Shown here: piece after piece, positions 3,015 through 63,275 of the stretch
Position numbering within the stretch: position 1 is the stretch's first letter
Layout of the letters: every line of letters begins with the position of its first letter
From: an uncultured Candidatus Sumerlaeota bacterium
Lineage (GTDB): Bacteria; Sumerlaeota; Sumerlaeia; MVZB01; JAJFLK01
NCBI GenBank assembly: GCA_964463045.1
Contig: CAYXAU010000011.1
Span: forward strand, 11,631-75,630
Direction of reading: 5' to 3'
Length of the DNA stretch: 64,000 nt
Position numbers and translations under genes: made by a program
Notes under the pieces: model-generated
What the model was told of the DNA's origin: nothing
Seen by the model: the letters and a program-made list of their open reading frames with translations, nothing else
Database searches by the model: none

Positions 3015-3833
3015 ATGAAGTCGCCGACGCTGCCGCTCGCCGTTGAGCGCGTGCCCGTCCTTTCGCGTCGCCCGTCGTGGGCCGGCGTGGCCGGTTTCCT
3101 CAAGCTCTCACTTCGCATTTCAGGGGCGCTCGGCCTGTTGACGCTGCTGGCCGGTTTCGCCTGGCAGTTCGATCGGTTCCTCCGCCGCTCGGACTTCTTC
3201 GCCCTCGCCCGGATTGAGATCGTCGGGGCTTCGGCCGTCCTCGAGGCTCAGCTCCGAGAAGCGCTCGCCATTGGCGGCGCCCCGGCCGCGAGCAATCTGC
3301 TCTCGCTCGACGCCGCGGGGATCGCCGCCGGCCTGGAAAGGCTACCCCGGCTGCGGGCCGCCCGGATCCTCAAACAATACCCCGCGACCCTGCGCGTCGA
3401 GGTCCAGGAACGTGTCCCCTTCGTGGCTGTGCTCCTCGACGAACTCTACTGGATGGACGCCGACGGCGTCCTGCTGGGCCCCGTCCCGACGGAGGACTGG
3501 AACGGCGAGGCGGGACCGATCCTGACGGGGCTCCGCGAGCTGGAGCCGCAGCCGGGCCGCCGGCTTCGTCAGGCTCGCCTGCCCGAGACGTTGCGCGCTC
3601 TCCGATACCTGGCGGACAACGACCCCCGGCTCGGCGCCCGGTTCGCGGAATGGCATCTGACCGCCGACGACGAGATCGTCGGCGTCTTGAAGGAGGGGAT
3701 CGAGGTGCGATTCGGCCCCGTTGACCCCCTGACGAAGATGGCCGTCCTCGCCGCCGTGTTGCGAGCCCGGCCCAACCTGTCGGACCTGCGCTGTTTGGAC
3801 CTGCGCTTCGAGGGTCAGGTCGTTTACTTCTGA
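3015..3833 (+). CDS. ftsQ: Cell division protein FtsQ (POTRA domain)
   Basis: It has an N-terminal TM segment and a POTRA-like region (FFALARIEIVGAS...). It sits immediately upstream of ftsA-ftsZ. Confidence 0.8.
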   Translation: MKSPTLPLAVERVPVLSRRPSWAGVAGFLKLSLRISGALGLLTLLAGFAWQFDRFLRRSDFFALARIEIVGASAVLEAQLREALAIGGAPAASNLLSLDAAGIAAGLERLPRLRAARILKQYPATLRVEVQERVPFVAVLLDELYWMDADGVLLGPVPTEDWNGEAGPILTGLRELEPQPGRRLRQARLPETLRALRYLADNDPRLGARFAEWHLTADDEIVGVLKEGIEVRFGPVDPLTKMAVLAAVLRARPNLSDLRCLDLRFEGQVVYF

Positions 3834-3869
3834 ACCCCGCTCCCGGAGAGCGGACGCCACGCCGTCTCG

Positions 3870-5186
3870 ATGCTCCGCCCTTTCTCCAGACTTCGACTGC
3901 GCCGGCGAGGCCAGATCCTGGCTCCGGCCGAACCGGCCCGGAGCCGCCGCGCGCCGCCCGGCCACGGGCGGAAACGGCGGGCTCGTCTGATCACCGGCCT
4001 CGATATCGGCACGACGAAGGTCTGCGCGATCATCGCCGAGGCCGAGCCGAGGGGGGACATCACGATCCTGGGTCTCGGGTCCAGCCCGTCGCCCGGCATG
4101 CGACGCGGCGTCGTCACCGACATCGACCGGACCGCTTCGGCCATCAGTCAGGCCTTCCTGCGAGCCCACGACCTGGCTCACCGGATCCCACGGGAGACTT
4201 TCGTCGGGATCGCCGGCGATCACATCGCGGGGGTCGAGGCGCGAGGATCCGTCGAGGTGGCCCATCCTAACGTCGGCGTGGACGCTCGGGATTGCCGTGA
4301 GGCGATCCGCCGCGCCCGCCAGATTCCCCTGGCGACGGACATGACGATCCTTCACCAGGTCGTACGCGAATACATCGTCGATGGGACGGCGGGGATTGAC
4401 AACCCCGTGGGGCTGTTCGGTCGCCGTCTTGAGGTCGGCCTGCATCTGATCACGAGCGCCGTCGCCGCCGGGAACAACCTGGCCCGATGCGTCCGGAAGG
4501 CCGGTCTCCGAACCAGCGGCATCGTTCTGGAATCCCTGGCGTCTTCGCTTGCCATCCTCGCCCCCCGCGAACGCGAGCTCGGCGTCGTCATGATCGACAT
4601 CGGCGGCGGAACGACGGACATCGCCATCTTCGCCGAAGGCGCCCTCCAGTACACGGCCGAGATCGCTCTCGGCGGCGACAGCATCACGCAGGACGTGGCC
4701 CGGATCCTCCGCTGTTCGCCTCACGACGGCGAGAACCTCAAAAAGAAATTCGGCCATGCCCTCCCGCTCAGCATCGACCCCGAGGAACGGGTCGATCTAC
4801 CCCATCCCCTGAAAGGAGGTCGGCGGATCACGTACGCTCGCCGCGAGCTGGCCGAGATCATTGAAGCCCGCGTCGAGGACATTTTCGAAAAGGTCAAAAA
4901 GGCGATCCGGCGTTCCGGCCACCTGGATCGCGTCTATGCCGGCGTCGTGTTGACCGGCGGGACGGCGCTGCTCGAAGGCATCGCTCCCGTGGCCGAGCGG
5001 ATGCTCGAATTTCCGACCCGGATCGGGCTGCCTCAGGGCCTGCGCGGCCTCGGCGAGATCGCCAGCAGCCCCATCTATTCCACCGCCGTCGGCCTGATCC
5101 GATGGGCCGTCGACGAAGGGCCCGGCTACCAGCCCGAATCCCGGCTGGTGCGCATCCTGAGAAAGGTGCTGGACATCTATGGCTGA
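3870..5186 (+). CDS. ftsA: Cell division protein FtsA
   Basis: Actin-fold motifs LITGLDIGTTKV and MIDIGGGTTDIAIF are present, and its end overlaps the ftsZ frame by 8 nt. The ~35-aa Arg-rich N-terminal extension depends on using ATG 3870, the only ATG before the conserved core. Confidence 0.9.
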   Translation: MLRPFSRLRLRRRGQILAPAEPARSRRAPPGHGRKRRARLITGLDIGTTKVCAIIAEAEPRGDITILGLGSSPSPGMRRGVVTDIDRTASAISQAFLRAHDLAHRIPRETFVGIAGDHIAGVEARGSVEVAHPNVGVDARDCREAIRRARQIPLATDMTILHQVVREYIVDGTAGIDNPVGLFGRRLEVGLHLITSAVAAGNNLARCVRKAGLRTSGIVLESLASSLAILAPRERELGVVMIDIGGGTTDIAIFAEGALQYTAEIALGGDSITQDVARILRCSPHDGENLKKKFGHALPLSIDPEERVDLPHPLKGGRRITYARRELAEIIEARVEDIFEKVKKAIRRSGHLDRVYAGVVLTGGTALLEGIAPVAERMLEFPTRIGLPQGLRGLGEIASSPIYSTAVGLIRWAVDEGPGYQPESRLVRILRKVLDIYG

Positions 5187-55950: not shown

Positions 55951-56028
55951 GGCGTGGCGCGCCTTGCCCACCCGCGGTCGCGGGGGATATGCTCGTCCGG
56001 GAGCCGCCGGCTCCCGGCGAGAGGGACG

Positions 56029-59000
56029 ATGGAGCAGGAGCTGGCCGATCGCCTGAGGGAGCGTTTCGCCCGCGCGCCAACGGTCGGGCGCGTCGAGGAG
56101 GCCATCGCGCGCGGCGATAATAATCTAGTTATCACCAACGCGGCGGGCGGGAGCCCCGCCCTCCTCGCCGCTCACCTGGCCGCCCGCGCCGAACGCCCCC
56201 TTCTCATCCTCACCGGCACGCTGGAGGCCGCCGAGGCCCTCGCCGACGGCATGAGCTTCTTCGGCGTCGAACCGCTCCTCTTTCCCCCCCTGGAAACCCT
56301 CCCTTTCGAAACCGCCGAGCCCGCCCTGCACGTCGCCGCCGCCCGCGCCGCCGTCCTCACGCGGCTCGTCGCGGCGGCTGACCCCGAGGCCTCCCCGCCG
56401 ACGATCGTCGCCCCGATCGACGCCCTCCTCGTCCGAATCCCTCCGGCGACCGTCTGGCGCGAGCTTGCGCTCGATCTTCGCTGGGGCGAGACGGTCGATC
56501 TGGACGCCCTCGCCGCGCGGCTGACGCGGATGGGCTATGCCCGCCAGGCGCTCGTCGAAAGCCCCGGGGAATTCGCCATCCGCGGAACGATCCTCGATCT
56601 CTTCCCGCCTGAAGCCGACCTTCCCTGTCGTCTGGACCTCTTCGGCGAAGAGATTGAATCCATCCGCCGGTTCGATCCCCGGACGCAGCGATCGCTCCCG
56701 GCCGAAGGCGAAATCGAGCGCCTTAAAGCTCTCCCGCGCGCCCTCCTGGAGCCGGCTCGGGACGTTCTGGCAGCCGGCGGGCGCCTGACCACGTTCCTGG
56801 ACCTCCTGCCGCCGGAGACGCTCCTCATCCTGGCCGGTCCCACGCGCCTGGAGCAACGGCTGGAGCATTTTGAGCAGGTGGCCGAGCGTCATTGGGCCGA
56901 AACGCTCAAGCCCGCTGACGGCGAGCCGCCGAACTTCTTCCACCAGCGCGGCTTGCGCCCGGAACACTGGATTCTCCCCCCGGCCGAAGCCCGCGCCGCG
57001 CTCGCCCGATTCCCCGCCGTCGCCTGGGCCGACCTGGAGACCGAAGCCGGCCACCCCGACGGGCCCAGAACCCGCATCGCCGTCGGGGCCCAGGGGCTCC
57101 AGACCGTCCCGTCGGATTTCGCGACCTACGCCGAACTGATCCGAGAGAAGCAACTCGAGGGCTACCGGATCGCCATCGCCTGCGACAATTTCGGTCAGGT
57201 CCAGCGTCTGGAGGAGCTCCTCTGGGAGGCCGGCGTTCCGGCCATGGCCGTCGGCGCTCCCCCGCGTGGGGCGGCCGACGGCCGTCAACCTCGGGCGCCG
57301 CTCCCGCTGGGGGCGCACGACGTCGCGCTCGTCGTGGGGGAGCTGCACGAAGGGTTCCTTTTCCCTGCGGCCCGCCTTCTTCTGATCACCGATCGAGAGA
57401 TTTTCGGACGCTATCGCCGCCGCCGAATCTACCGCAAGGCCTTCCGGGGGAAGATCGTCTCGGCGCCGTCGGAAATCGAGCGGGGGGACTTCGTGGTTCA
57501 TCGGGATCACGGTATCGGCCGGTTCGAGGGGATTCGCCGCCAGCAGGTGGACGGCCGGCTCGGCGAATTCCTCGAAATCGGCTACCAGGACGGCGACAAG
57601 CTGCTCCTACCGATCGATCGGCTCCATCTGGTCCAGAAATACGCCTCGGTCGACGGCAGAGAGCCCGCGCTCGACAGGCTCGGCGGCCGCCTCTGGAGCC
57701 GTCGCCGTCGCCGGACCGAGGAAACCGTCCGTCGCCTCGCCGGCGAGTTGCTGGAGCTCCACGCTCGGCGCCGGACCGCCGAGAAAATCCCCTGCGGCCC
57801 CGATTCCGTCTGGCAACAGGAGTTCGAAGCCTCCTTCATCTATCAGGAAACCCCGGATCAGCTCCGCGCCATCGGCGAAATCAAGACCGATCTGATGAGC
57901 CCCCGCCCGGCCGACCGGTTGCTCTGCGGCGACGTCGGGTTCGGCAAGACCGAGGTCGCCATTCGCGCCGCCTTCAAAGTCCTCCAGGAAGGGCGTCAGG
58001 TCGCCGTCCTTGTCCCGACGACGATCCTCGCCCAGCAGCACCATCGGACCTTCTCCGAGCGCCTGGCCGGTTATCCCTTCGTCGTCGAGATGTTGAGCCG
58101 CTTCCGCAGCCCGGCCGAACAGAAGGCCGTCGTCGCGGGCCTCGCCGCCGGCCGGGTCGATCTCGTGATCGGGACGCACCGGCTTCTCTCGCGCGACGTG
58201 CGTTTCGCCGACCTCGGCCTGTTGGTGATCGACGAGGAGCAGCGTTTCGGCGTGGCGCAGAAGGAACGGATCAAGTCCCTGCGCGCCTCGGTCGACGTCC
58301 TCTCGATGACGGCCACGCCGATCCCTCGAACGTTGCACATGGCGCTTTCCAAGCTGCGCGACCTGAGCATCATCGAGACGCCCCCCGCCGATCGGCTGCC
58401 GATCAAGACCCGGACGATCTATTTCGAGCGGGACCCGATTGAGGAGGCGCTGCTGCGGGAGCTCAATCGCGGCGGCCAGGTCTATTTCGTCCATAACCGG
58501 ATCGAGTCCATCCACGAGGTCGCCGAGACGCTGCGCCAGATCGTCCCCCGCGCCCGGATCGCCGTCGCCCACGGCCGGACGGACGAGGCCGAGCTCGAAC
58601 GCCTGATGCTGGACTTCATCGCCGGGAACTATGACATCCTCCTCTCGACCACCATCATCGAGAACGGCATCGACATCCCCAACGTCAATACGATCATCGT
58701 CAACCGCGCCGACGCCATGGGGCTCGCCCAGCTTTATCAGCTCCGCGGCCGCGTCGGCCGCGACGTCCGCCAGGCTTACGCTTATCTCGTCCTCCCCCGC
58801 GGGAGGCCCATCACGGACACGGCGCTCAAGCGGCTTCAGGCCCTGGAGGAGTTCTCCGAGTTGGGAATGGGCTTCGCCATCGCCATGCGCGACATGGAAA
58901 TCCGGGGCGCCGGCAACCTCTTGGGGCGCGAGCAAAGCGGGGCGATCGCCGAGATCGGCTTCGACCTTTACTGTCAATTGCTCGAAGAGGCGGTGATGGA

Positions 59001-59562
59001 ACTTAAGGGAGAGGGACCCGCCGAGCCGCTCTGGCCCACCGAGATCAAATGGCCCGCCGAGCAATGGCTCCCCGAGCCCTACGTCCCGGTCGAGGCCCAG
59101 CGGATTCACGTTTACCGCGCCCTGGCCTCAGCCCGGGGTCTGGAGGACCTCGACGCGATCAGCGAGGAACTCCGCGATCGCTATGGTCCGCTCCCGGCCG
59201 AGGCCGTGAACCTCCTGAATGCCTTCCAGGTCCGGCTCGCCCTGGCCCCCTGGCGGGTGGACGTGGTCCGAGGCGAATCGACCGGCCAGATTCGCCTCGT
59301 CGGCCGGAACGTCGCCCCGGGCTTGCTGGCCGCGCTGGAATCGCGCCGGGCGGACGCGCCTGGCCTCGAACGTCTCGCTCGCCGCGGCGAGGATCAACTT
59401 ATCCTCAGCATCGCCCCCGAGCGATGGCATCCCGAACGAGCCTTGGCCGAGTTGGCGGCCTGGCTGCGGGAGCTGCCCCCGCCGGAGCCTCAAGCCGGCG
59501 GCCCGAAGGCCGAGGCGATCCGCGCCGGCCGCCGCCAAGGGAACTCTCAGGCGCGCCCTTAG
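56029..59562 (+). CDS. mfd: Transcription-repair coupling factor Mfd
   Basis: It has a UvrB-homology N-terminus and an RNAP-interacting domain. The SF2 helicase motifs GDVGFGKTEVAIRAA, DEEQRFG and QLRGRVGR are present, and a TRG motif region is recognisable. ~1177 aa from ATG 56029. Confidence 0.9.
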   Translation: MEQELADRLRERFARAPTVGRVEEAIARGDNNLVITNAAGGSPALLAAHLAARAERPLLILTGTLEAAEALADGMSFFGVEPLLFPPLETLPFETAEPALHVAAARAAVLTRLVAAADPEASPPTIVAPIDALLVRIPPATVWRELALDLRWGETVDLDALAARLTRMGYARQALVESPGEFAIRGTILDLFPPEADLPCRLDLFGEEIESIRRFDPRTQRSLPAEGEIERLKALPRALLEPARDVLAAGGRLTTFLDLLPPETLLILAGPTRLEQRLEHFEQVAERHWAETLKPADGEPPNFFHQRGLRPEHWILPPAEARAALARFPAVAWADLETEAGHPDGPRTRIAVGAQGLQTVPSDFATYAELIREKQLEGYRIAIACDNFGQVQRLEELLWEAGVPAMAVGAPPRGAADGRQPRAPLPLGAHDVALVVGELHEGFLFPAARLLLITDREIFGRYRRRRIYRKAFRGKIVSAPSEIERGDFVVHRDHGIGRFEGIRRQQVDGRLGEFLEIGYQDGDKLLLPIDRLHLVQKYASVDGREPALDRLGGRLWSRRRRRTEETVRRLAGELLELHARRRTAEKIPCGPDSVWQQEFEASFIYQETPDQLRAIGEIKTDLMSPRPADRLLCGDVGFGKTEVAIRAAFKVLQEGRQVAVLVPTTILAQQHHRTFSERLAGYPFVVEMLSRFRSPAEQKAVVAGLAAGRVDLVIGTHRLLSRDVRFADLGLLVIDEEQRFGVAQKERIKSLRASVDVLSMTATPIPRTLHMALSKLRDLSIIETPPADRLPIKTRTIYFERDPIEEALLRELNRGGQVYFVHNRIESIHEVAETLRQIVPRARIAVAHGRTDEAELERLMLDFIAGNYDILLSTTIIENGIDIPNVNTIIVNRADAMGLAQLYQLRGRVGRDVRQAYAYLVLPRGRPITDTALKRLQALEEFSELGMGFAIAMRDMEIRGAGNLLGREQSGAIAEIGFDLYCQLLEEAVMELKGEGPAEPLWPTEIKWPAEQWLPEPYVPVEAQRIHVYRALASARGLEDLDAISEELRDRYGPLPAEAVNLLNAFQVRLALAPWRVDVVRGESTGQIRLVGRNVAPGLLAALESRRADAPGLERLARRGEDQLILSIAPERWHPERALAELAAWLRELPPPEPQAGGPKAEAIRAGRRQGNSQARP

Positions 59563-59609
59563 GGACACGCCGCGACCGGCCCGATCTTGGGCCCCCGCAA
59601 AAAAAGCAC

Positions 59610-59641
59610 TTGACCCTATAGTCAGGTACTGGGCGTAGGGT
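59610..59641 (+). promoter_or_regulatory. MerR-type promoter/operator: TTGACC-N20-TAGGGT with dyad ACCCTA-N17-TAGGGT
   Basis: The -35 TTGACC and -10 TAGGGT are separated by an over-long 20-bp spacer. The -35/-10 elements are themselves arms of a perfect 6-bp inverted repeat. It lies 19 nt upstream of the merR-like ATG. Confidence 0.5.
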
Positions 59642-59659
59642 CATCCTCGGAGGCGGATC

Positions 59660-60073
59660 ATGGAAAGCCTCAAGATCGGTCAGGTCGCTCGAAGCGCGGG
59701 CGTGAACCTACAGACGATCCGGTACTACGAGCGCCGGGGGCTCGTTCCCCAGCCGCCCCGTAGCGGCGCCAACTACCGCCTCTACTCCGACGAGACCGTC
59801 CGCCGCGTCCGCTTCATCAAGCGCGCGCAGGAGCTCGGCTTCACGCTTAAGGAGATTCAGGAGCTGCTTTCGCTGCGGGCCGCTCCTCGCGCCCGCTGCG
59901 CCGACGTGCGCCGTCGCGCCGAGGCCAAGGTCCGCGACATCGATCAGAAGCTCCGCCGGCTTGAAAGCATGCGCCGGGCGCTGGGGCGCCTCCTCGCCGA
60001 GTGCTCCGGCGAGGCCCCGGCGACGGAATGTCCCATCCTCGAAGCGCTCGACCCGGAAGAGGAGGAAGCCTGA
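59660..60073 (+). CDS. merR: MerR-family transcriptional regulator with Hg(II)-MerR-type cysteine triad (Cys80/Cys115/Cys124)
   Basis: The HTH IGQVARSAGVNLQTIRYYERRGL is present. The cysteine spacing (35 and 9) is identical to Tn21 MerR (C79/C114/C123). The dimerisation helix is present. Confidence 0.8.
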   Translation: MESLKIGQVARSAGVNLQTIRYYERRGLVPQPPRSGANYRLYSDETVRRVRFIKRAQELGFTLKEIQELLSLRAAPRARCADVRRRAEAKVRDIDQKLRRLESMRRALGRLLAECSGEAPATECPILEALDPEEEEA

Positions 60074-60855
60074 TGCCTCGCGTCGAATTGATCTATGACG
60101 CCGACTGTCCCAACGTCGCCGAGGCCCGCCGGGCGCTCCTGGAGGGCTTCGCCCAGGCGGGGCTCCCGCCGGTCTGGACCGAGTGGGATCGGCGGGCGCC
60201 CGAAAGCCCCCCCCACGTCCGACCCTACGGCTCGCCGACCATCCTCGTCGACGGGCGCGACGTCGGCGGGTGGAATCCCACGGCGACGTCCGAAAGTTGT
60301 CGGGTTTACTGTGAGGAAACCTCCGGCCTCCGCCGCGCTCCGTCGGCCTCGCGGATCGCCGCCCATCTCCTGAAGGCTCCCGCAGGCTCGACCGCAGGGA
60401 GCGACCGCTTGAGGGGTCGATGGCGCGGGCTCGCCCTCTTCTCGACCCTGGGCGCCTCCGGGGCCGCCTTGCTGCCGGTGGGCTTCTGCCCGGCTTGCTG
60501 GCCGGCTTATGCGGGGGTGCTGGGGGCGGTCGGATTGGGGTTCACGCTGAACTCGGCGTTCGTGCTGCCGGTGACCGCCGGATTTTTCGGGTTGGCGCTC
60601 TTCACGCTGGCATGGAGAGCCCGCGCCCGCCGGGGTTACGGCCCTCTCGGGCTGGGCATCGTTTCCGCGGCGGGGGTCCTGATCTTCAAATTCGCTTATC
60701 CGATCAACGCATGGCTTTACGCCAGTTTGGCCGGCTTTGTCGCGGCCGCGATCTGGAACGCCTGGCCGAGGGCCCTCCAGGCGGCCGAACGCTGCCCGAA
60801 CTGCCGCCCCGACGAATTGAGCGAGCCCGCCGAAACCCCACTCGAAAGGAGGTGA
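60073..60855 (+). CDS. Thioredoxin-fold domain fused to a MerT/MerF-like mercuric-ion transporter membrane domain
   Basis: The membrane region ALFSTLGASGAALLPVGFCPACWPAYAGVLGAVGLGF...ALFTLAWRARARRGYGP aligns by eye with MerT TM1-TM2 (ALFAGGLAAILASACCLGPLVLIALGF...ALFFAWRRIYRP). The vicinal CC is replaced by CPAC and a C-terminal CPNC pair is present. The N-terminal ~100 aa resemble the downstream Trx_3 protein (VELIYDADCPNV vs IEIFSAGCAAC). Its ATG overlaps the merR stop (TGATG). Confidence 0.55.
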   Translation: MPRVELIYDADCPNVAEARRALLEGFAQAGLPPVWTEWDRRAPESPPHVRPYGSPTILVDGRDVGGWNPTATSESCRVYCEETSGLRRAPSASRIAAHLLKAPAGSTAGSDRLRGRWRGLALFSTLGASGAALLPVGFCPACWPAYAGVLGAVGLGFTLNSAFVLPVTAGFFGLALFTLAWRARARRGYGPLGLGIVSAAGVLIFKFAYPINAWLYASLAGFVAAAIWNAWPRALQAAERCPNCRPDELSEPAETPLERR

Positions 60856-60860
60856 GGGCT

Positions 60861-61124
60861 ATGCCAGCGAAGCGCAAGATCGAGATCTTCAGCGCCGGAT
60901 GCGCGGCCTGCGAGGAGACGATCCAACTGGTCAACCGCCTGGCGTGTCCCTCGTGCGAAGTCAGCGTGCTGGACATGCGTCAACCCGACGTGGCGCGCCG
61001 CGGGAAATCCCTCGGCGTCCGCGTCGTCCCCGCCGTGGCGATCGACGGTCGGCTGGCCGAGTGCTGCGCCGGGGGGCCGCAGGAAGCGGCCCTGCGCGCC
61101 GCGGGCGTCGGCCAACCGGCCTGA
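60861..61124 (+). CDS. Small thioredoxin-like (Thioredoxin_3-type) protein with CxxC (GCAAC) and a MerA-tail-like vicinal CCAG motif
   Basis: 87 aa. KIEIFSAGCAACEETIQLV is a thioredoxin-fold CxxC. The C-terminal ...RLAECCAGG resembles the MerA C-terminal Hg-handoff Cys pair (...SCCAG). An RBS GGAGGTGAGGG lies 6 nt upstream. Confidence 0.6.
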   Translation: MPAKRKIEIFSAGCAACEETIQLVNRLACPSCEVSVLDMRQPDVARRGKSLGVRVVPAVAIDGRLAECCAGGPQEAALRAAGVGQPA

Positions 61125-61168
61125 CCCCCCGGGGGGGAAGCCGTGGTCCAGGGAGCGCGTCGTTTCGG

Positions 61169-63022
61169 TCAGGCGCGCTCCTGGGGCTTGTTCACGTCGG
61201 CCACTTCAAAGACGACGTCGGACTCCTTGCCGATCCGCATGGCGTGAATGGCCGAAGCTTCCAGGAAGACGGATTTGGCGTTGCGCTCGGCCTCCTCGAT
61301 CAGGTCCCATTGATCCTGATTGAGGGCGACCTCGAGTTTGAAGAACGCCTCTTTAATCCGCTGCTCCAGGTCGCCGCCGAGCGGCCCGCCGTGGCGGATC
61401 ACTTCCATGGAGGACTCCATTTCCTCCAGGCGCCGCCGGACGGCGGCCTTTTGCATGAAGAGGCGATCCTCCTCGGCGTGTTCGGCCGCCGCCCCGATCG
61501 CCCGCTCCACCTCGGCCTCGGCCCCGGGCAGATAGGATTCAATCTTGACCTCTTCGGCGCGGCCGCTCGTCAGGTCCTCGGCTGAGACCGTCAGGATGCC
61601 GTTGGCGTCGATGGCGAAGCTGACCTGGATTTCAGGGATCTCCTTCGGCGCCGGGGCGATCCCCTTCAATCGAAAGTGAGAGAGCGAACGGTTCTGCGAG
61701 GCCCGCTTGCGTTCACCTTGAAGCACGTGGATTTTGACCGTGTCCTGATTGTCGGCCACGGTCGTGAATTTGCGTCGGACCGTCGTCGGCACGTTGGCGT
61801 TGCGCGGCACCAGCACGGAGAACACGTCGTTCGTCAGCTCGATCCCCAGCGACAACGGCACGACGTCCAGCAGCAGCACTTCTTCCAGATCGCCCGTCAT
61901 GATCCCGGCCTGGATGGCGGCCCCGGCCGCCACCACCTCGTCGGGATTGATCGAAACGTCGGGCTCGCGCCGGAAAATCTCGCGGGCCAGGGCGCGGACG
62001 GCCGGGATGCGCGTCGAGCCGCCGACCATGATGATGTTGGCCAGGTTCTCGGGTTTGATCCTCGCGTCGGCCATCGCCGTTTCGCACGGCGGGCGAAGCC
62101 GCGCCAGGATCGGCTCGATCAACGTCTCGAACTCCTCGCGCGTGATCTCGCCGGAGTAGTGCTTCGGCCCCGTCTCGTCGGAGACGATGAACGGGAGCGA
62201 GATCATCGTCTTCGACAGCGTGGAGAGTTCGCATTTGACTTTCTCGGCGGTTTCGGAAATCCGTTGCAGCGCCTGGGGGTCCGGCCGCGGGTCCAGCCCT
62301 GTCGCCTCCCGGATGCGCTCGGCGATCCACTCGATCAGAATGTGATTTATGTTGTCCCCGCCGAGGAAGGTGTCTCCCCCCGTCGACTTCACCTCAAAAA
62401 TGTCCCCGTCGATCTCCAGGATCGTAACGTCGAACGTCCCGCCGCCGAAATCGAAGACGGCGACCTTGGAACGCTCGCGTTTGGCGAGCCCATAGGCCAG
62501 CGCCGCCGCCGTCGGCTCGTTGACCAGCCTCAGCGCCCTCAAGCCGGCCTTCTCGGCGGCCAGCTTGGTCGCCTGACGCTGGCTGTCGTTGAAATGAGCG
62601 GGAACGGTGATGACGGCGTTCTCGATCGGCTCGTTGACGAACGCTTCGGCCGTCGCCTTCATTTTGAGCAGCACTTGAGCCGAAATGTCCTCCGGACGAT
62701 ACGGCCGGCTCCCCACGCGGACCGTCACCATGCCCTCGGCGTCCGGCTGAACCTCATAGGCGATCCCTTCAAGCCGATCCGTCACTTCGTCCCAACGGCA
62801 CCCCATGAAACGTTTGACGGAATGAACGACCCGCTTCGGAGCCGTGATGCGCTGGCGCTGGGCCAACTCCCCGACGACGATCTCCCCGCCGTCGGCGAAA
62901 TAGATGACCGAAGGGGTCGTTTTGCGCCCCTCGGCGTTGGGGATGATCTCCGGCCGATTGGCTTCCAGTACCGCCACGACCGAATTCGTGGTCCCCAGAT
63001 CAATCCCGACAACCTTCGACAT
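61169..63022 (-). CDS. Hsp70-family chaperone (DnaK paralog; no grpE/dnaJ adjacent)
   Basis: VVGIDLGTTNSVVAV, DFGGGTFDVTILEI and the IVLVGGSTRIP-type block (IIMVGGSTRIPAV) are present. ~617 aa from the MSKVVGIDLG start. Confidence 0.85.
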   Translation of the reverse strand: MSKVVGIDLGTTNSVVAVLEANRPEIIPNAEGRKTTPSVIYFADGGEIVVGELAQRQRITAPKRVVHSVKRFMGCRWDEVTDRLEGIAYEVQPDAEGMVTVRVGSRPYRPEDISAQVLLKMKATAEAFVNEPIENAVITVPAHFNDSQRQATKLAAEKAGLRALRLVNEPTAAALAYGLAKRERSKVAVFDFGGGTFDVTILEIDGDIFEVKSTGGDTFLGGDNINHILIEWIAERIREATGLDPRPDPQALQRISETAEKVKCELSTLSKTMISLPFIVSDETGPKHYSGEITREEFETLIEPILARLRPPCETAMADARIKPENLANIIMVGGSTRIPAVRALAREIFRREPDVSINPDEVVAAGAAIQAGIMTGDLEEVLLLDVVPLSLGIELTNDVFSVLVPRNANVPTTVRRKFTTVADNQDTVKIHVLQGERKRASQNRSLSHFRLKGIAPAPKEIPEIQVSFAIDANGILTVSAEDLTSGRAEEVKIESYLPGAEAEVERAIGAAAEHAEEDRLFMQKAAVRRRLEEMESSMEVIRHGGPLGGDLEQRIKEAFFKLEVALNQDQWDLIEEAERNAKSVFLEASAIHAMRIGKESDVVFEVADVNKPQERA

Positions 63023-63275
63023 CGCGCCCATCCCTCCCGCTCGGCGGCCTCGGACCCGACACCCCCGCGCCACCGCCCGGTTCACCCTCGCCGCCAGAAC
63101 CGATCTTATATCATCGCCCCCCTGATGAGTCACGCCCCGATCCGGCCTTCGGCCGCCGGCTTCTCGCCGCCCATCGGCCTCCCCCCTTTACGTCCGCCGT
63201 CGCCGATCGTAGACTGACCGGCCGACCGCCCTCGCCGGGGCCGGGCAGACGTTCGAGCGCAGCCGGCGTCCCGTC

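Follow-up and report, generated by a model that had tools for sequence, protein, structure and literature searches.

A 64,000-nt stretch of genomic DNA from an uncultured Candidatus Sumerlaeota bacterium (assembly GCA_964463045.1, contig CAYXAU010000011.1, positions 11,631 to 75,630; hereafter the window) contains three adjacent genes, here called R, F and T, for a MerR-family regulator, a two-domain membrane protein and a small thioredoxin-like protein. R-F-T is a genuine three-gene unit assembled from mercury-resistance parts, and we suggest, with a probability of roughly 55%, that it serves for an Hg(II)-induced uptake of the MerC type, from which a cytosolic relay of cysteines leads the metal to sequestration or hand-off. 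The initial annotation of this DNA had proposed a mer-derived thiol relay without MerA, MerP or MerB for a thiophilic metal, most likely mercury. That core idea is borne out by a merO-like operator, by the homology of F to MerC and by natural fusions of the N-terminal domain of F to known mer parts. The unit had also been presented as unusual, but it is not confined to this genome and proved to be a conserved cassette found in at least several hundred species. Its recognisable parts are MerR with merO, MerC and Thioredoxin_3. As a whole it differs from a classical mer operon, the defining MerA being absent. The features on which the argument turns are as follows.

59610-59641, + strand: MerR-type promoter/operator, read from the sequence, with -35 element TTGACC (59610-15), a 20-nt spacer and -10 element TAGGGT (59636-41)
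59660-60073, + strand: R, putative MerR-family metal sensor of 137 aa, first gene of the operon, with a Shine-Dalgarno sequence GGAGG at 59649-53
60073-60855, + strand: F, 260 aa, two domains; its ATG overlaps the TGA of R by one base (TGATG)
60073-60372, + strand: thioredoxin-fold domain at the N-terminus of F (aa 1-100), predicted to be cytosolic, with Cys12-Pro13, Ser54-Pro55-Thr56 and Cys76-Arg77-x-Tyr79
60427-60855, + strand: MerC-like four-helix membrane domain of F (aa ~119-235) and the cytosolic tail that follows it, with CPAC (139/142) in the first transmembrane helix (TM1) and CPNC (241/244) in the tail
60861-61124, + strand: T, Thioredoxin_3 protein of 87 aa, with a Shine-Dalgarno sequence GGAGG within the last codons of F

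The operator is the strongest single argument for mercury. DNA upstream of R was taken from 75 related loci, 61 of which align on one motif, and the consensus of about 60 orthologous upstream regions is cTTGACTCTGTAGTAnGGTACAGGGTnTAnAnT. In these loci the operator reads TTGAC(T/C)C(C/T)GTA(C/G)-N4-GTAC(A/G)GG, with a 20-nt spacer and TAnAnT as the -10 element, and it closely resembles the Tn21 merO dyad TCCGTAC-N4-GTACGGA. Tn21 merOP, which we read from plasmid R100, is TTGACTCCGTACATGAGTACGGAAGTAAGGT, and the dyad within it is TTGACTCCGTAC-ATGA-GTACGGA. The two operators share a 7-4-7 dyad with a GTAC core that begins at the identical base of the -35 hexamer, and the spacer is 20 nt in the R-F-T family versus 19 nt in Tn21. 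In many copies the palindrome is perfect (as in locus L005, TTGACTCCGTACCTAGGTACGG), and the actinobacterial relatives of the unit have the same operator. The 20-nt spacer of the family, with its dyad, lies within the 19-20 nt that separate the two hexamers at promoters of Hg(II)-responsive MerRs; the copy in the window is imperfect, its spacer holding the 7-4-7 dyad CCTATAG-TCAG-GTACTGG. A scan upstream of R for ordinary sigma-70 promoters with a 16-18-nt spacer found none, as expected for a MerR-type promoter. An A-tract, AAAAAAA, which may be UP-like, lies at 59593-59599, about 10 nt upstream of the -35 element. A conserved A-tract or UP element was considered and rejected: four or more A within the 30 nt upstream of the -35 element were seen in just 21 of 61 loci, a weak conservation.

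The regulator points in the same direction. Pfam recognises in R the helix-turn-helix and the coiled-coil dimerisation helix of the MerR family, with matches to MerR_1 (PF13411), MerR-DNA-bind (PF09278) and MerR (PF00376), all above cut-off. Among solved structures, Bacillus MerR (4UA1, E 3.6e-31) and Tn501 MerR (5CRL, 1e-25) are the closest to it. The initial annotation had noticed that Cys80, Cys115 and Cys124 of R have the 35/9 spacing of the Hg(II)-binding triad, and the alignment agrees, as the three match the Hg ligands of both structures column for column (C82/C117/C126 in Tn501 MerR and C79/C114/C123 in Bacillus MerR). All three cysteines are invariant in 76 orthologues, and the loop between Cys115 and Cys124 has eight residues, as in the solved MerRs. 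Among NCBIfam models, R is matched best by TIGR02051, the Hg(II) MerR model (142.8 bits), ahead of CueR (128.8), ZntR (123.7) and CadR/PbrR (112.8), and MerR is the top-matching model for most of the orthologues. The score of R is just short of the curated equivalog cut-off of TIGR02051 (150.85 bits), and the triad is shared with PbrR.

This last point brings in a different reading, in which the metal is another thiophilic one (Cd, Pb, Zn, Au or Ag), R is a PbrR-, CadR- or ZntR-like sensor, and F and T traffic that metal, perhaps together with nearby pumps. PbrR (5GPE) has the same three aligned cysteines and the same eight-residue loop, and therefore the cysteines of R by themselves are no proof of mercury. 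The CueR and ZntR models score just 14-20 bits lower than MerR, and heterologous expression of MerC has been reported to raise Cd accumulation. Against it, at E <= 1e-36 the MerR model matches 66 of the 76 orthologues, ZntR 30 and CueR 22. Set against another metal are also the merO-like 7-4-7 dyad with its GTAC core and the fusion of the N-terminal domain of F to MerT and to MerB, a strictly organomercury enzyme. We consider this reading unlikely, and return to the pumps below.

The membrane domain of F was at first described as MerT-like, and this had to be given up in favour of MerC. A profile of the F-family membrane domain matches Tn21 MerC over MerC residues 12-122 with 37.5 bits (E 7.5e-13), as opposed to 3.1 bits for Tn21 MerT. 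With Tn21 MerC as the BLASTP query, F is recovered in 51 of 81 loci, and with Tn21 MerT in none; nor did Pfam or NCBIfam yield a MerT (PF02411) match to F. An AlphaFold 2 (AF2) model of an F homologue has four membrane helices. We rejected a MerT identity for F on the profile score, the lack of a BLASTP match, the CxxC in place of CC and the four helices. The F of the window falls short of the curated MerC thresholds (18.4 bits with Pfam PF03203, gathering score 27.6; 23.7 bits with NCBIfam NF010318, cut-off 170), and precomputed PF03203 matches exist on most of more than 1,000 F homologues. To judge from these comparisons, the membrane domain of F is a divergent subfamily homologous to MerC.

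The cysteines of F fit this assignment. CPAC, read initially as a replacement of the vicinal CC of MerT, is indeed present in the first hydrophobic segment and is conserved in the family, but it aligns with CAAC in TM1 of Tn21 MerC; it is therefore the TM1 CxxC to be expected of a MerC, and no deviation from MerT. The C-terminal CPNC pair that had been pointed out is also found, at 241/244; both cysteines are at least 90% conserved, and they are the positional counterpart of the cytosolic C-terminal cysteine pair of MerC, with the spacing CxxC in F versus CxxxxC in Tn21 MerC. Cys80 of F is not conserved in the family. MerC has an established topology with both termini in the cytosol, and the arginine-rich segments of F, one ahead of TM1 and the other between TM2 and TM3, fit this N-in/C-in arrangement.

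The N-terminal domain of F has no Pfam family. The residues invariant in F-type and actinobacterial copies are Cys12-Pro13, Ser54-Pro55-Thr56, Leu58, Gly61 and Cys76-Arg77-x-Tyr79. Cys12-Pro13 occupies the thioredoxin CxxC site with one cysteine only (CPN, here CPNV), Ser54-Pro55-Thr56 corresponds to the cis-Pro loop, and Cys76-Arg77-x-Tyr79 is on an extra beta-hairpin. Its relationship to the NCBIfam DF family (seleno)protein (NF049942) is at best distant, with 39.8 bits for this domain and 45.4 for its counterpart in the Nocardia MerB fusion, against a cut-off of 70. The initial annotation took the domain to be a paralogue of T. We could not sustain this: hhalign gave E 0.019 and a probability of 2.4%, only fold landmarks are in register (CPN with CxxC, SPT with VPA), and there is nothing beyond a shared thioredoxin fold.

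An exhaustive search of 1.84 billion representatives for this domain returned 981 cluster representatives at E <= 1e-3, the top matches being mostly of F length or short; most of the family is of the F type or stand-alone. Ten N-domain proteins of unusual length or domain position were scanned against Pfam; a partner domain could be identified in five, every one of them a mer part, and the other five had no Pfam match. The partners are MerC (P0427), MerB (P0428), MerT with HMA (P0470), HMA (P0497) and MerR (P0399). In P0470 the N-domain is followed by MerT and then by a C-terminal HMA/MerP-like domain; P0399 is a MerR fused to the N-domain. In Nocardia farcinica pNF2 (L081, 4600-5999), the domain is fused to MerB, and the gene adjoins merR. 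In actinobacteria it is mostly a stand-alone gene of about 100-120 aa that overlaps the merR stop codon (L092-L099, around 3600-4360). No MerA, MerB or transporter was found near these actinobacterial pairs, which often sit in ars or P-type ATPase islands. NCBI often labels the stand-alone proteins 'alkylmercury lyase' despite their having no MerB domain, a recurrent mis-annotation that is exposed here. Because the domain is fused to MerR and MerB, we regard it as cytosolic. From this pattern of fusions we conclude that it is an unnamed soluble module dedicated to mer systems, and by analogy with NmerA it is likely to serve as a two-cysteine Hg(II) acceptor and donor, built on another fold.

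T was described at the outset as an 87-aa Trx_3-like protein with a CxxC, and its match to Thioredoxin_3 (PF13192) is above threshold (29.5 bits, cut-off 24.8). Three cysteine pairs are present, CAAC (14/17) at the N-terminus of helix 1, CPSC (29/32) and CC (68/69), together with a cis-Pro loop at V56-P57. In 47 homologues that are 70-80% identical, C14, C17, C29, C32 and C68 are invariant and C69 is conserved in about 90% or more. Foldseek and HMMER identify NE0084 (2K8S), MJ0307 (1FO5) and MTH895 (1NHO) as the nearest solved relatives. The first cysteine pair is the only one of the three in 2K8S, and CPSC and CC are therefore additions specific to the T family. A C-terminal CCAG tail resembling that of MerA had also been claimed. 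The motif is there, and CCAG is the last four residues of Tn21 MerA (…SCCAG), but in T it is internal, with about 18 residues after it, so that it is no tail, and its second cysteine is conserved at only about 90%; the likeness to MerA is a motif resemblance, not homology.

Cooperation between F and T is supported by the conserved R-F-T order and by natural F-T fusion proteins (P0045, P0047), in which T is joined to the cytosolic tail of F. In an AF2 model of P0045, three domains are predicted with confidence, and the linkers that join them are disordered. We tried to read from it how T docks on F, and with a predicted template modelling score (pTM) of 0.43 and disordered linkers it was uninformative.

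The canonical CxxC of T at helix 1, and its place in the MTH895/MJ0307 group of small thioredoxins, would also suit a thiol-redox repair module. T and the N-domain would then be disulfide reductases that maintain the cysteines of F, or thiols of the periplasm and membrane, in the reduced state, and F would relay reducing equivalents in the manner of CcdA/DsbD under thiol-reactive stress. A cytosolic thioredoxin working with a membrane protein that has a transmembrane cysteine pair is indeed the logic of CcdA/DsbD, and small Thioredoxin_3 partners of cysteine-containing permeases recur in ars-type loci (the NCBIfam 'MTH895/ArsE family') and in SAO loci. Against such a function, the N-domain has CPNV without the second cysteine of CxxC, and therefore it is no classical dithiol reductase; the membrane domain is homologous to MerC and not to CcdA/DsbD; the CPSC and CC pairs of T would be superfluous for disulfide reduction; and R, with its metal triad and merO-like operator, scores far lower with the SoxR and NmlR models. 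We consider redox repair to be a rather improbable function of R-F-T.

For the distribution of the unit, we scanned one genome per species and, for neighbourhoods, counted genes in flanks of ±8 kb around the best 80 loci. Relatives of F are encoded in 394 species. R-F-T order and orientation are kept in about 74 of the 80 loci, with F-T-R in three and R-T-F in one, and identity across phyla is 70-80% for T, 45-60% for F and 45-70% for R. The hosts belong to more than 15 phyla, nearly all are metagenome-assembled genomes, and most come from uncultured groundwater, sediment and soil organisms. They include Acidobacteriota, Myxococcota and other 'Deltaproteobacteria', Alpha-, Beta- and Gammaproteobacteria, Planctomycetota, Gemmatimonadota, Armatimonadota, Verrucomicrobiota, Nitrospirota, Spirochaetota, Actinomycetota, Binatia, Latescibacterota, Omnitrophota, Hydrogenedentota, Krumholzibacteriota and 'Glassbacteria'. 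Plasmid carriage was looked for and rejected, as none of 72,556 PLSDB plasmids has a full-length F and the only matches are to the N-domain in actinobacterial MerB fusions. Clustering of all flanking open reading frames (ORFs) found no further universally linked gene.

No linked reductase was found either. A tblastn search of the 64-kb window found no homologue of MerA, MerP, MerT, MerE or MerB, in keeping with the initial report that mercuric reductase, MerP and MerB are missing from it. Within 8 kb of the cassette in the 80 loci, a search with the motif C.N.GC.P[ST]K and BLASTP with Tn21 MerA found no MerA. Three class-I flavoprotein disulfide reductases of about 32% identity came up as candidates and were judged not to be MerA; the two whose C-termini were read (L048, L049) have no C-terminal CC. 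A motif search for hgcA near the cassette was also negative.

What does recur nearby, and belongs with the reading in which another metal is handled, is metal pumps. Tripartite heavy-metal efflux pumps of the resistance-nodulation-division type (HME-RND; Cus-type and HME1-type), P1B ATPases, cation diffusion facilitator (CDF) transporters, a multicopper oxidase and CusF are neighbours in about 25% of loci; HME-RND pumps adjoin about a quarter, P1B ATPases about six and CDF transporters about eight. The TM4 motifs of the RND pumps are a mixture of Cus-type and HME1-type, however, and the pumps are usually 0.6-2 kb away with genes between, as in metal-resistance islands. We therefore rejected coupling to a single type of efflux, the signatures being mixed and mostly non-contiguous. 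It appears that the pump neighbours reflect residence in metal-resistance islands, with a functional link possible in a minority. Loci L020 (2586-9449) and L032 (43-6446) would be such a minority: the genes for OEP, CusB, CusA, F, T and R are contiguous on one strand, F starts no more than about 60 nt from the end of cusA or overlaps it, and R, the last gene, is the variant closest to Tn21 MerR (about 50% identity). Their arrangement hints at a functional link between RND efflux and the MerC/thioredoxin pair in some lineages.

The absence of MerA around 80 loci and the contiguous cusCBA-F-T-R of L020 and L032 could also be taken as signs of a new but complete detoxification, in which T, whose CC is next to its CxxC, reduces bound Hg(II) to Hg(0) with dithiol electrons and is recycled by thioredoxin reductase, or F carries cytosolic Hg(II) outward to the periplasm, where RND pumps would expel it. 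Constraint on T is extreme, with 70-80% identity across phyla, which suits a catalyst, or a partner that docks tightly, better than a passive chelator. The unit has no flavin or NAD(P)H domain, however, and to our knowledge no enzyme is established that reduces Hg(II) with thiols alone. MerC-type carriers lack energy coupling, and therefore export against cytosolic thiols would be thermodynamically unfavourable; at most loci, moreover, there is no adjacent pump. Genomes with MerB and without MerA are common and unexplained (PMC8261052), which would fit such a system. On balance we regard complete detoxification by either route as very improbable.

For the reading that we prefer, an Hg(II)-induced uptake and thiol relay, the following course of events can be proposed, in which the identity of the metal, the way it travels and where it ends up are all inferred. 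R would bind the metal through Cys80 of one subunit and Cys115' and Cys124' of the other, remodel the promoter with its 20-nt spacer and activate its own operon, as homology and the identity of the operator suggest. The MerC-like domain of F would take up Hg(II) on the periplasmic side at the CPAC of TM1 and pass it, through thiol exchange, to the CPxC of the cytosolic tail, a step modelled on Tn21 MerC. From the tail, the metal would move to the tethered thioredoxin-fold domain (Cys12/Cys76), in the role of NmerA, and from there to T, which would be abundant and offer up to three dithiol sites. Since the unit has no reductase, the relay would end in sequestration or hand-off. Hg(II) might be sequestered stoichiometrically on T and the N-domain, which could be sufficient at environmental pM-nM concentrations; such a sink is plausible because synthesis would be Hg-induced. 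Alternatively, Hg(II) might be handed to low-molecular-weight or other thiols of the cell, or to a MerA whose gene lies elsewhere.

Several findings weigh against this course of events. None of the 76 R orthologues reaches the MerR equivalog cut-off (E 2e-44; best E 5.1e-44), and the triad and loop shared with PbrR make sensing of Pb or Cd compatible with R. The right arm of the operator in the window is degenerate, with 4 of 7 positions complementary. About a quarter of the loci adjoin Cu/Ag- or Zn/Cd-type RND pumps, P1B ATPases or CDF transporters, and the AF2 model of P0045 is, at its pTM, unreliable as to how the domains are placed relative to one another. Finally, E. coli engineered to import Hg(II) but given no reductase becomes hypersensitive, as seen with constructs that have merT, merP or merC only. 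We offer a bolder version of the same relay tentatively, and hold it to be doubtful: that R-F-T, and the actinobacterial core of a MerR with the thioredoxin-like domain, are an autonomous, MerA-independent mercury defence that works by sequestration or trans-thiolation or, less probably, by dithiol-driven reduction or hand-off to efflux. Such a defence would rest on the unnamed, mer-specific thioredoxin-fold domain as a handler of Hg(II) and on the cysteine-rich mini-thioredoxin, and it would account for the way in which the many MerA-less and MerB-only genomes deal with Hg(II).

Compared with the Tn21/Tn501 operon (merR-merOP-merTPCAD), R-F-T has in common a three-cysteine MerR, a near-identical dyad in an over-spaced promoter, and a MerC with CxxC in TM1 and a C-terminal cysteine pair. 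Unlike Tn21/Tn501, it lacks MerA, MerP, MerT, MerD and MerE; R is co-transcribed as the first gene, whereas merR is divergent there, and the spacers differ by the one nucleotide already mentioned; the MerC domain has an N-terminal thioredoxin-fold domain; and a cysteine-rich mini-thioredoxin follows. With the Gram-positive operons (Bacillus RC607/Tn MERI1), it shares a merR that is the first gene of its own operon, and the best solved relative of R, 4UA1, with the same cysteine positions and loop length, is from this group. Those operons, in contrast, encode MerA, often MerB, MerT/MerE-like carriers and MerP, and are not known to have a thioredoxin-MerC fusion or T. Acidithiobacillus ferrooxidans has merR-merC and merC-merA units, in which merC is the sole Hg carrier and merR-merC lies apart from merA, as R-F-T does, but its MerC is not known to have a thioredoxin domain or a mini-thioredoxin partner, and MerA is in the genome.

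The soluble parts have their own counterparts. NmerA and MerP would share with the N-domain the proposed role of a soluble two-cysteine acceptor from the cytosolic pair of a carrier. They are, however, ferredoxin-like HMA domains with GMTCxxC, whereas the N-domain is a thioredoxin fold with Cys12 and Cys76, and it is tethered to a transporter, MerB or MerR and not, as NmerA is, to MerA. The actinobacterial pairs of MerR with 'CPN...GSPT...CRLY' and the pNF2 fusion have the same N-domain residues, MerR type and operator, a merR overlap of 1-4 nt and no MerA nearby, but no MerC domain and no T. T itself resembles the small Thioredoxin_3 proteins (2K8S, 1FO5, 1NHO, 'ArsE' and SaoT) in its minimal thioredoxin fold of about 85 aa with a CxxC, and ArsE and SaoT are also encoded beside cysteine- or selenocysteine-bearing metal or metalloid transport genes. 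It differs from them in its MerR/MerC context and in having two more conserved cysteine pairs (CPSC, CC) than 2K8S. SaoT is conceptually similar, a small thioredoxin in a proposed organometal-handling SAO locus (bioRxiv 10.1101/2022.07.06.499078).

Searches of the full-text literature yielded no description of the R-F-T cassette or of the N-domain, a negative that means absence of evidence and nothing more. As mer parts, the thioredoxin-fold domain and the mini-thioredoxin with three cysteine pairs are new. Teaching and surveys of mercury resistance usually put MerA at the centre. Large mer censuses begin from MerA or MerB (PMC3466566, PMC8261052) and are therefore blind to MerA-less units. 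merC has been reported only in operons of Beta- and Gammaproteobacteria (PMC3466566); MerC-type carriers, it appears, reach well beyond them. Among the soluble modules that handle Hg, the N-domain would be a fourth kind beside HMA/MerP/NmerA and TRASH/MerH, with a thioredoxin fold and fused to MerC, MerT, MerB or MerR. The unit, predicted to be induced by Hg and to take up and bind it, occurs in hundreds of environmental lineages with no reductase linked to it, and its spread over hundreds of species suggests an undescribed mode of mercury handling. Should the unit be autonomous, it would bear on the Hg(II) tolerance of MerB-only and MerA-less organisms, and on the entry and buffering of Hg(II) in environmental bacteria, with consequences for bioaccumulation and for the availability of Hg for methylation. 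R with its operator, F and T would also be compact parts for biosensing and for engineering bioaccumulation.

In the window, the unit lies between mfd (55954-59562) on one side and a convergent Hsp70-like gene (61169-63133, - strand) on the other. The Shine-Dalgarno sequence of R is six bases ahead of its ATG, and the three genes are translationally coupled, F to R through the TGATG overlap. The GC content of R-F-T is 0.70, and GC at third codon positions (GC3) is 0.83-0.86, the same as in mfd and the hsp70-like gene on either side. We considered whether this genome had recently acquired the unit by horizontal transfer, and there is no sign of it, since GC and GC3 are those of the neighbours and no mobility genes were found near the unit in the window. 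No T-run terminator was found 3' of T; a palindrome of G and C only, CCCCCCGGGGGGG, lies at 61125-61137, inside the 44-nt gap between T and the Hsp70-like gene. Identical R, F and T proteins are present on several metagenome contigs.

Two further genes were seen beside the cassette in other loci. In L064, directly 3' of T (1475-~2090, + strand), there is an ORF for a membrane-anchored thioredoxin-like protein with an in-frame TGA at codon 71. The TGA lies within 'LLSPA*PVCRQG', a UxxC-like site, and about 135 more in-frame codons follow, so that the product may be a candidate selenoprotein; next come a cysteine-rich membrane protein and a P1B ATPase with two HMA domains. In three Planctomycetota loci (L009, 4094-4516; L011, 7111-7437; L049, 8949-9497), the cassette adjoins the gene for a small, secreted, cysteine-rich repeat protein, with the repeat unit …DCPGK[VL]xCPLTGExVC[KR]D[QE]CPL… and a CC at the end.

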